DNA from: a virus
Virus record (IMG/VR): IMGVR_UViG_3300017917_002918
Span: 103,402-167,401 of that record
DNA length: 64,000 nt
Direction: 5' to 3' (one strand)
This document shows, one piece after another, positions 57,141-59,402 of this stretch. Both the position numbers and the translations under genes were made by a program. Numbering within the stretch: position 1 is the first letter of the stretch; every line of letters begins with the position of its first letter. Under the pieces are notes generated by a model that made no database searches, was not told where the DNA came from, and saw nothing but the letters and a program-made list of their open reading frames with translations.

Positions 57141-59402
57141 ATGTCTAAACAATATGGTATCAAGGAAGTTCTAAATTGTGCTTTCTATGACTACACAACT
57201 GGTGCGGAATTGTTTTATGCTGACTACATGTCAGACGCATCAATCGAAACAAGTGCCGAAAGACTCGATTAACCACAAAATGGTCGCTTCTAGTAGTAAT
57301 ACTAGTCGAAAACTCCGAATATGCTGGAACAACCTTTAGAGTCTTTAATAGTAATTTATATTAGAAATGATATAAATATCTGAAAATTTAAAGAATTGGT
57401 CAATCAGCAGAGATAGCCCTAAGTTACTTATGTGATATGGGAAGCTCTCAGAGACTATCAAGGAGCATCCTTAATGGATGATGGTATAGTCCACTCCCTT
57501 TAAATATCGGGAAACCGAGGGTATGTAGGCTAAGAGGTGGACAAGGTAACTACAAGCTTTTGTCATTTGACCACACAAAAACAATGACATTTAAAGCTGA
57601 AATGCCACTTGTTGACTTGACCGCAGTAGCGATGTTGACAGGTAAAGCTCTAAACGTAGGTAGCGTTAATATTCCTAAAAGAGAAGTATTAACTTCAGTT
57701 GGTGCAACGCCTACAATTACACTTGCAGCTACTCCAGTTGCAGGAACATTGAAAATTTATGCTATTTCAAACAGAGATGTTGGAACAGAGCAAACAGCAG
57801 GTACACCAACAAGTACACAGAATCAATATTCAATTTCTGGTACAACAGTTACACTTAATGCAACATCTGGTGTAGCAGGAAGTACATTTTCAGTTAGTTA
57901 TACATATGCAAGTGCTGCAACTGCTAGTACTACTACATTTACGGCTGACAAATTCGCAGGATTGAATTACAGTCCCATATTGCAGTAATGCAATAATGAA
58001 AATTCCGAATATGCTGGAACAACCTTAGAGTCTTTAATAGTAATTTATATTAGAAATGATATAAATATCTGAAAATTTAAAGAATTGGTCAATCAGCAGA
58101 GATAGCCCTAAGTTACTTATGTAATATGGGAAGCTTCCAACGACTACCAAGGAAACGCCTTATTTTAGGTGTATTGTATAGTCTATTCCCCTAATAAATA
58201 TCGGGAAACCGAGGGTATGAAAGATGTGCGAATTTTAGGAACAGGAATTGTAACCGATTAATAACATGGTCGCCTCCAATAGTAATATTGGTTGAAAACT
58301 CTGAATATGCTGGAACATCCTCTCAAGGATAATCCTTGATGTACAATGGTTATAATTGTACAAGAGCCTTTGATAGTAAACTTCATTAGAAATGATTAAG
58401 TTATCTTAAAATTCAAAGGATTGGACAATCAGCAGACATAGCTCTAAATCATACATTACGTATGACATGAGAAGGTCTCAACGACTACCAAAGAGATACC
58501 TAGTATTAGGTATATGGTATAGTCTACTCCGTATATAAATATTCCGAAAGGAACGGTATAAAGGCAAATCACAGGAGCAAACGTAATAAGTGTATTTGAT
58601 ATCAAGAAAGCAAAGGTAATTGATGCCTCGTATGTACAGAAATGTGCATAGGACATGACACGTATAAGCAGGTAATTCCTAAAGCTCACTGCCACAATAT
58701 AAAGATGAAATAGGCTTAATATGATGGAACGAAAGTAGAAAAAAGTGTGAGATGAATATATGGTTAAATCCTAAGTATTCGTAAACAATGGATGTTCATG
58801 CTGGGAATCTTTGAATAGAAGAGCCTTCAACGACTATGGCTGAAATGCCAGTACACAGTAAGCTATTGACTGTGGAAGTGTGTCACCCTTAACGGATTAT
58901 GCCGAAGGTGAAGAAGTAGTCTCCACTCATATGAAAGTATGAGGTGTCGTTAAAGACACTCTTATGAAGTAGCGTTCATAGGAAAAGATGATTTAATTCT
59001 TACGAGAATTAAATTGGCAAAGAACAATTGGAGTATCACCCAAAAGTCAACGGACGCAACGAAATTAACACTGGATTAAATTAATAGTCCCATATTACAG
59101 TAATGTAATATTGCAAATCTCTTAAACTGCTGGAAGTTCCTTAGAGCCTTATAAACTACAACGTAGATGGTAACGTCAAGCGTGAATGTTTGAAAATTAT
59201 AAGGATTGGATAATCAGCAACGAAATTCCTGTTATGCAGGAAGACGCTCAACGACTACGATAGAGGTTGCCTTATTTATAGGTAAATGGTATAGTCTACT
59301 CCCCTAAGAAATATCGGGAAACCGAGGGTATAAAGGTTTGATTTATATGCAGTTGATGTTAATAATGAGAAATTGTACGTAACAATGACGGCTTTGACTT
59401 AA
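57141..59402 (+). CDS. major tail tube protein (YomU-like); exons 57141-57269, 57530-57962, 58224-58258, 58565-58616, 59018-59076, 59337-59402 (257 aa)
   Basis: Exons total 774 nt in one open frame: ..ERLD|LRGGQGN..FAG-Y(split)VRILGTGIVTD|QITGAN..IKKAK-A(split)KNNWSIT..LTLD|FDLY..ALT*; GGAGG RBS; synteny. Confidence 0.85.
57270..57529 (+). ncRNA. group I intron 1 of tail tube gene (260 nt)
   Basis: P1 CGAU/GUCG; UGCUGG..AAUCAGCAG; AGAGACUA/UAGUCC; P9.0 CU/AG; terminal G. Confidence 0.92.
57963..58223 (+). ncRNA. group I intron 2 (261 nt)
   Basis: P1 GGAU/GUCC; same core; ACGACUA/UAGUCU; P9.0 UU/AA; terminal G. Confidence 0.92.
58259..58564 (+). ncRNA. group I intron 3 (306 nt)
   Basis: P1 CGAU/GUCG; UGCUGG..AAUCAGCAG; ACGACUA/UAGUCU; P9.0 CU/AG. 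Confidence 0.92.
58617..59017 (+). ncRNA. group I intron 4 (401 nt, different subtype; 5' boundary uncertain by 1 nt)
   Basis: AAGCAGG..CAUGCUGG; ACGACUA/UAGUCU; P9.0 CA/UG places terminal G at 59017. Confidence 0.85.
59077..59336 (+). ncRNA. group I intron 5 (260 nt)
   Basis: P1 GGAU/GUCC; CUGCUGG..AAUCAGCA; ACGACUA/UAGUCU; P9.0 CU/AG. Confidence 0.92.

Follow-up and report, generated by a model that had tools for sequence, protein, structure and literature searches.

Organization of the tail-tube gene

The 64-kb window analyzed here forms the last part of a virus record that is 167,401 bp long and has direct terminal repeats; the G+C content of the window is about 30%. The record is a metagenome-assembled virus, the viability of which is assumed. 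A gene for the tail tube starts at position 57141 on the plus strand, which also carries all the exon and ribozyme features described below. Its homologues, tail-tube or virion structural proteins, are found in Geobacillus virus E3 (gp24) and in the Bacillus phages vB_BcoS-136 and PJN02. The gene is split into six exons by five introns. Exons 1, 2 and 3 occupy positions 57141-57269, 57530-57962 and 58224-58258, respectively. Exon 4 (58565-58616, 52 nt) encodes QITGANVISVFDIKKAK and the first base of an Ala codon, and it ends in AAGG. Its extent is given by the reading frame and by colinearity with E3, vB_BcoS-136, PJN02 and L007-L009, three uncultured relatives in which the gene is free of any intron and is 63% identical over exon 2. 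Exon 5 (59018-59076, 59 nt; ...CA AAG AAC...) encodes AKNNWSITQKSTDATKLTLD, is colinear with the homologues and precedes intron 5, whose U.G site is canonical, and exon 6 (59337-59402).

A U.G pair defines the 5' splice site in nearly all group I introns. Introns 1, 2, 3 and 5 of the tail-tube gene are paralogues with Rfam group I matches at 29.5-50.1 bits, and their junctions, as read from the sequence, are canonical, with an exon-final U paired with G. Intron 4 belongs to a lineage distinct from that of these four. It is 401 nt long (58617-59017), and the boundary with exon 4 reads AAAGG↓UAAUUG, where the arrow marks the end of the exon. No open reading frame of at least 60 amino acids lies wholly within 58617-59017; a 66-residue stop-to-stop frame on the minus strand (58478-58678) merely overlaps the 5' end.

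Structure of the intron 4 ribozyme

The Rfam group I model (RF00028) scores intron 4 at 29.9 bits, against a gathering threshold of 50, with E = 2e-4 and a poor alignment. The core elements of a group I intron, P3, P4/P5, P6, P7, P8 and P9, are all present. The catalytic core (58656-58921) was delineated with the help of two alignments, consensus folds and pair counts. P3 is formed by 58656-58663 with 58878-58885, and P4/P5 by 58667-58679 with 58790-58802, between which the P5 extensions are located. P6 (58803-58826) is followed by P7, in which GACUA (58832-58836) pairs with UAGUC (58917-58921), by P7.1/P7.2 (58838-58875) and by P8 (58888-58907). Downstream of the core, P9 (58926-58943, with a GAAA loop), P9.1 (58944-58959) and P9.2 (58961-58982, with a GUAGCG loop) are homologous to hairpins of the IStron ribozymes.

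The predicted P1 hairpin (58614-58628) is comprised of the pairs A58614-U58628, G58615-C58627, G58616-C58626 and U58617.G58625. The RNA fold adds one further pair beyond the wobble, A58618-U58624, followed by a 5-nt loop, so that the loop measures 5-7 nt. The 3' strand of P1 belongs to the internal guide sequence GCCUCG (58625-58630), which is common to a family of elements sitting after RAAGG. P2 (58631-58650), placed by the fold and by pair counts, has 8 bp and a GAAA tetraloop. A terminal hairpin (58990-59015) has 10-11 bp, only one or two of which are not A-U, and a UACG loop (fold z = -4.2). It occupies the spot where the IStrons hold their IS cargo within an AU-rich inverted-repeat stem, and it is absent in L021, the closest relative of intron 4.

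The first alignment contains six IStron-type ribozymes, including L013-L015, in addition to intron 4. Its mean column identity is 71%, and the consensus fold has a compensatory change in 45 of 85 pairs. The second contains five full-length introns without an ORF and was examined against a hand-written structure, made by adding P1, the P3/P7 pseudoknot and P9.0 to the RNAalifold helices. The 105 pairs of this structure are formed in 93.9% of the cells, compared to 33-41% when the partners are slid by 1-3 columns. Both sides have changed in 33 pairs, and none of 500 shuffles reaches the observed score. The four pairs of P1 (A-U, G-C, G-C, U.G) are invariant in the five introns, and P9.0 covaries, with A-U in three sequences and C-G in two. 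The ribozyme looks intact.

P9.0 is formed by C58924 and A58925 with U59015 and G59016, just before G59017. The covariation named in the preliminary description was found again: CA (58924-58925) faces UG (59015-59016) in intron 4, CU faces AG in introns 1, 3 and 5, and UU faces AA in intron 2. In the family to which intron 4 belongs, the combination is CG with CG in L013-L015, CA with UG in intron 4, L021 and L025, and CC with GG in L029 and L030. The UGG end of intron 4, in place of CGG, is thus due to a C-to-U change that is compensated by G-to-A in J7/9. A P10 helix was also considered. UGCCU (58624-58628) is perfectly complementary to the ligated AGG↓CA, but the pairing with the 3' exon is not conserved in L013, L014, L021 and L029, and no weight is given to it.

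Position of the exon junction

Exon 4 ends in ...GCAAAGG (G58616) and continues as UAAUUGAUGCCUCG; the intron ends in ...AAAUUGG (G59017), after which the sequence is CAAAGAAC. The exons were joined in silico in three ways: U58617 to G59017, U58617 to G58982, and G58616 to G59017. The join of G58616 to G59017 produces a 257-residue protein, ...KKAK AKNNWSITQKSTDATKLTLD FDLY.... Its residues line up one for one with those of L007-L009 (KKAK AKNDFTIT...) and of the three distant homologues, E3 gp24, vB_BcoS-136 and PJN02. At this point FDVKKAK-AKNDFTITMNST... of these relatives is aligned with FDIKKAK-AKNNWSITQKST... of the phage. All six intron-less homologues have KAK, three further residues and N(F/W)(T/S)(I/L)T, with no insert. 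The expected C-terminus, which the preliminary description had predicted for a cut after G58616, is obtained with this join. The same alignment confirms the four other intron junctions of the gene.

An Ala codon lies at the junction, where the message after ligation has no U, because the three close homologues encode this point as AAA GCA AAG or AAA GCG AAA, that is, as Ala (GCN). The spliced message is fixed as AAG G↓CA AAG AAC, in which the Ala codon GCA is restored, and no U is present between AUAUC and AAUUGG. The predicted ligated junction is GCAAAGGCAAAGAAC for a cut after G58616 and GCAAAGGUCAAAGAAC for a cut after U58617. Since the intron-less homologues fix KKAK↓AKN, the removed piece is exactly 401 nt, 58617-59017, with a G before it. 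GG closes both exon 4 and intron 4, and cuts after G58615 and G59016 give an identical product; no register places a U at the end of exon 4. By the P9.0 covariation, G59017 is favored over G59016 as the terminal (omega) G of the UGG end, in agreement with the reading frame, and G58616 is accordingly favored as the last exon base.

These findings support the conclusion that exon 4 must end in G, with the predicted pair G58616-C58626 at the cleavage position and the wobble U58617.G58625 one base inside the intron. The general rule of an exon-final U paired with a guide G does not hold for intron 4, in which the wobble is found at +1. The G-C pairing of the 5' splice site, as proposed in the preliminary description, is borne out by the homologues, which fix the junction, and by seven related introns that behave alike. 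The inferred 5' splice site, with G58616 as the last exon base and U58617 as the first intron base, is the only cut, apart from the equivalent G58615/G59016 register, that restores KKAK↓AKN, and the arrangement is that of the group B IStrons (PMC4227781). The junction is supported as well as sequence alone allows, and from it we infer that splicing in the phage takes place at these bonds.

Relatives of intron 4

Blastn links intron 4 to Clostridium botulinum plasmids, including p1BKT015925, the host of CboIStron, and to the phages c-st and D-1873. The best match to its 5' part is L013, an IStron of a C. botulinum plasmid, whose internal guide sequence and P2 are 80% identical from G58625 onward; GCCUCG and P2 are nearly the same in the two elements. 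L013 carries a ribbon-helix-helix gene and tnpB and reads GAAGG↓UAACUAAC...GCCUCG-P2...AACGG↓CAGAG. L014, a TnpB-carrying IStron of p1BKT015925, and L015, of phage c-st, read GAGG↓UAACUAAC...GCCUCC...AACGG↓.

A pattern scan of viral contigs for GCCTCG and P2 found 12 loci, in which the element follows AAGG and starts with T in 11 of 12. The closest relative, L021, is a 400-nt intron without an ORF in the tape-measure gene of another phage and is 79% identical to intron 4 over its whole length. It reads ACAAAGG↓UAAC...AUUGG↓CAAUGG and has CA in J7/9. L025, likewise in a tape-measure gene, has the same UGG end and CA in J7/9. L029 and L030 reside in a capsid-like gene; they are 386 nt long and 67% identical, end in GGG and have CC in J7/9. 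These four introns, all from IMG/VR contigs of uncultured phages, share with intron 4 the guide sequence, the AAGG↓U start and the core, and differ from it in their host genes, in P1 loops of 30-32 nt and in having no terminal AU-rich hairpin.

Reading frames across the junction were examined in L013, L014, L015, L021, L025, L029 and L030. A join after the G leaves the frame open for 38-500 codons. The shortest of these, 38-39 codons in L029 and L030, correspond to the end of that gene, and the join in L014 reads into the SHDIRTPL motif of a histidine kinase. When the same seven are joined after the U, a stop codon is encountered within 1-26 codons.

In the group B IStrons, a group I intron is joined to a transposon of the IS607 family (Tourasse, Stabell and Kolsto 2014, PMC4227781). 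They insert after sites that end in GG (AGGG, TGGG, GAGG), their initial U lies outside the exon, their end is CGG, and they are spliced after G instead of U (PMC4227781). For BcISt1 of Bacillus cereus, RT-PCR of ligated exons and of intron circles proved that splicing occurs after the G and that the U is the first base of the intron (PMC4227781). In the C. senegalense IStrons of the IS607 family, RNA-seq matched the predicted splice sites (Zedaveinyte et al., bioRxiv 10.1101/2023.11.20.567912). The splice after G, which the preliminary description had taken for a near-unique exception to the U.G rule, is instead a documented habit of the group B (IS607-type) IStrons (PMC4227781).

The comparison of intron 4 with BcISt1 and with CbISt1-4/CboIStron of C. 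botulinum, c-st and D-1873 shows an IA2-type core that is alignable throughout. The homologous ribozymes have in common the GG-ending target (AAGG in intron 4), the first base U, the exon-final G, the U.G pair shifted into the intron by one base, the 3' GG, the P9.0 pairing just before the terminal G and an AU-rich hairpin near the 3' end at the site of the cargo. Intron 4 differs in the absence of tnpA, tnpB, a guide RNA and P2.1, in the P1 loop of 5-7 nt, in the UGG end instead of CGG and in its length of 401 nt versus 1.4-2.6 kb. In the group B IStrons the U.G pair leads directly into the loop with no further pairs, and the inverted-repeat stem is long (15-34 bp, more than 80% AU) and is the sole remnant in natural copies without an ORF (PMC4227781); the corresponding stem of intron 4, with 10-11 bp, is shorter. 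Relatives that bear cargo have 30-85 nt in the P1 loop, which holds AAGTTATAA repeats. End repeats of the AAGTTATAA type are present in L013, L014, L015, L019 and the phage's own IS607, and inspection of the P1 loop and the 3' end of intron 4 found no such repeats there. Since it has neither IS607 end repeats nor cargo, intron 4 is not an IStron in the strict sense but a derivative or relative without cargo.

Copies of BcISt1 without an ORF are found in emetic B. cereus; they arose by excision of the ORF region only (PMC4227781). As in intron 4, the whole ORF region is lost, a stem-loop is left and the element is located inside a host gene. Judged by the description in that paper, intron 4 is set apart from them in that neither of its ends has recognizable IS607 sequence.

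Canonical phage group I introns, such as those of T4 td and Twort orf142 and introns 1, 2, 3 and 5 of the tail-tube gene, resemble intron 4 in their IA-type architecture, the terminal G, P9.0 and the location in an essential phage gene. They are cut 3' of the U in the U.G pair, whereas the cut in intron 4 has to lie 5' of this U. Fungal mitochondrial introns of group I in which C.G occupies the 5' splice site, reportedly described by Hur and Waring in 1995, also depart naturally from the U.G rule. In those introns a pyrimidine, C, replaces the U in place, whereas in intron 4 a purine ends the exon and the wobble is kept but offset.

The preliminary description had counted 12 nt from the splice-site partner to the P2 loop and used this distance to place the site. 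The count itself is right. Its diagnostic value is lost, since in L014 and L015, which need the cut after G, the wobble G and P2 are separated by the canonical distance; the one-base offset is therefore not explained by spacing.

Alternative explanations

The reading closest to the preferred junction shifts both cuts by one base, after G58615 and with G59016 as the terminal G, so that the intron would be 58616-59016. The GG at both ends makes the ligated sequence identical, and circles of BcISt1 without the first or the last base have been seen (PMC4227781). In this register, however, UU would precede the terminal G and would be unable to pair with CA at 58924-58925, the P9.0 covariation of the family holds only with G59017, and the first intron base of BcISt1 is U (PMC4227781); we regard it as unlikely. 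A canonical cut after U58617, joined to G59017, has the general rule for group I introns on its side, and the sequence contains the U58617.G58625 wobble, which the fold predicts to form. It would shift the frame, as the preliminary description had worked out and the joining of the exons reproduces, to end in ...NTGF with a stop codon two codons into exon 6. The product would be a truncated tube protein (...KAKVKEQLEYHPKVNGRNEINTGF, stop), and the intron would represent a deleterious insertion, a defective copy or the source of a second isoform. The shifted exon 5 is unlike any homologue and the conserved C-terminal strands are lost; the cut after U gives early stops in seven of seven relatives, and BcISt1 is cut before the U by experiment (PMC4227781). 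The canonical cut is very unlikely on these grounds. Programmed +1 frameshifting after canonical splicing was rejected, as AAG GUC contains none of the known shifty motifs and the evidence from the family leaves no need for such an event.

A one-base indel or substitution near the junction, from assembly or sequencing, might hide a canonical U.G intron. The record is indeed assembled from a metagenome, but the neighboring genes and the four other intron junctions are clean, and the homologous ligated sequence has no U, so that no single error yields a canonical site that keeps the Ala. Moreover, an error would have to mimic the GG↓U...GG↓ layout, which is common to the whole family and recurs in independent assemblies. 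The error, raised as an alternative in the preliminary description, is thus highly improbable. The other alternative raised there joins U58617 to G58982, a 3' site further upstream. This join is in frame, with the frame open from 58954, and would add 12 residues (VKDDLILTRIKL) to the tube protein. None of the six homologues has an insert at this point, G58982 lies within the P9.2 stem and has no P9.0 partner, and the AU-rich terminal hairpin occupies the same stretch as the 12 codons; we give this join almost no credence. A terminal C (C59018, with a cut after U58617) was also tried. It is in frame but gives Val where the close relatives have Ala, has no precedent and was dropped.

Proposed mechanism and origin

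The explanation that we favor, with a probability of about 85%, is that 58617-59017 is a 401-nt group I (IA2-type) ribozyme without an ORF, which belongs to the lineage of the group B (IS607-type) IStrons, is inserted in an AAGG site of the tail-tube gene and is spliced after G58616, with boundaries set by transposition and a cargo that has since been lost. According to this explanation, AGGU (58614-58617) would pair with GCCU (58625-58628) to form P1. Exogenous guanosine would attack the bond 5', not 3', of U58617, so that the exon would end with G58616, paired with C58626, and would be held by A58614-U58628, G58615-C58627 and G58616-C58626. G59017 would be positioned as the terminal G by P9.0 (C58924-G59016 and A58925-U59015). 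Joining of the exons as ...AAAGG↓CAAAG... would produce the Ala codon GCA and the full 257-residue tube protein.

The GG at both ends would correspond to the crossover dinucleotide of IS607. The boundaries were most likely set by DNA transposition, because the GG found both in the target and at the end of the element agrees with IS607 targets, which contain GG (PMC4227781); the ribozyme lineage would have adapted to boundaries set in this way. The transposase, TnpB with its guide RNA and the end repeats would since have been lost from intron 4. Intron 4 may have originated from a full IStron that was reduced by two deletions, or it may belong to an IS-free branch. A more tentative proposal, which we consider possible but doubtful, is that intron 4, L021/L025 and L029/L030 together represent an IS-free branch among the IStron ribozymes, one that colonizes RAAGG sites in phage structural genes without a transposase, TnpB or end repeats and spreads by GCCU-guided reverse splicing or by recombination between co-infecting phages.

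Implications

The splice after G has been known since 2014 for the group B IStrons, and intron 4 adds no new rule. With it, this habit of the IS607-type IStrons is extended to an essential tail gene of a phage, where the intron is 401 nt long and cargo-less; such introns make up a small family, found in the tape-measure, capsid-like and tube genes of phages. The one-base offset from the U.G pair was left open in 2014, and no resolution was found in two later papers on IStrons. With its small size and near-empty P1 loop, intron 4 would be a convenient natural substrate for the question of offset cleavage, although the added value is modest. If the IS-free branch were real, the offset cut would be intrinsic to a ribozyme of about 400 nt with a P1 loop of 5-7 nt rather than a by-product of transposon ends folded into P1, and the intron would be a minimal natural system for group I cleavage 5' of the wobble U. 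In annotation, the exons of this lineage must be ended ahead of the U, since the host gene would otherwise look frameshifted.

Other IS607 elements of the phage

The tnpA and tnpB genes of the phage are located elsewhere than in intron 4. A blastn search of intron 4 against its own genome detected only the distant core of an IStron in the tape-measure region and no parent copy. This IStron carries TnpB. The same phage also has an intron-less IS607 element, composed of a serine TnpA, TnpB and RAGATH-18, the ends of which match those of the C. botulinum IStrons.

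Group I introns and relatives

The tail-tube gene contains five group I introns without open reading frames (window 57141-59402), separated by exons as short as 35 nt. All five junctions are borne out by homologues that lack the introns. Introns 1, 2, 3 and 5 are paralogues, with 71-89% identity over their aligned parts. The putative intron of the terminase gene (window 45541-45811), counted as a sixth in the preliminary description, had no Rfam match at E <= 0.01 in a scan of positions 1-50000.

The splice-site pair may be altered in one relative (L023:2068-2097, - strand, IMGVR_UViG_3300042923_000619). 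Its guide sequence, GCCUCG, is the same as that of intron 4, the upstream AGGU is absent and the flank reads UUGG followed by CUGGAAC. Judged from this flank, the intron may begin with a C that pairs with the G of the guide sequence, and the wobble would then be lost. The ORF of this relative encodes 374 amino acids and does not look like TnpB.

The same ribozyme core is found in two forms in Clostridioides phage ES-S-0173-01 and Enterocloster phage CB457P2. One is a group A-type element that follows TTGAT, with the P1 pairing UUGAU/GUCAG and a canonical U.G pair; the other is an ordinary intron that contains a gene for a GIY-YIG endonuclease. With these two forms, one core is associated with three kinds of mobility cargo.

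IS607-type elements of the phage

An IStron carrying TnpB (385 amino acids) and an Arc-like ribbon-helix-helix gene lies outside the window, at about 4600-6730 of the phage's own genome (C1), in the tape-measure region, where the tape-measure gene is split into several pieces. It belongs to a subtype that begins with U after AG and ends in CAG, and the UG of its J7/9 pairs with CA.

A complete element of the IS607 family, with no intron, occupies window 13134-15181 on the - strand. It comprises a serine-recombinase tnpA (about 14514-14906, Resolvase match), tnpB (about 13331-13531) and a RAGATH-18 RNA (13197-13265), which is probably the guide RNA of the element. One boundary falls between GGTGG and TCGACTG...AAGTTATAAAAAGTTATAA, the other between ...TTTATAACTTTTTATAAGTTTTCTGTAACGG and GAG. 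The right end is almost the same as in the C. botulinum IStrons, a similarity that points to a Clostridium host and suggests that the element could supply transposase in trans.

The Y RNA-like YrlA family has two neighbouring matches at window 172-444 (- strand), which score 35.6 and 37.4 bits, below the gathering score of 69.
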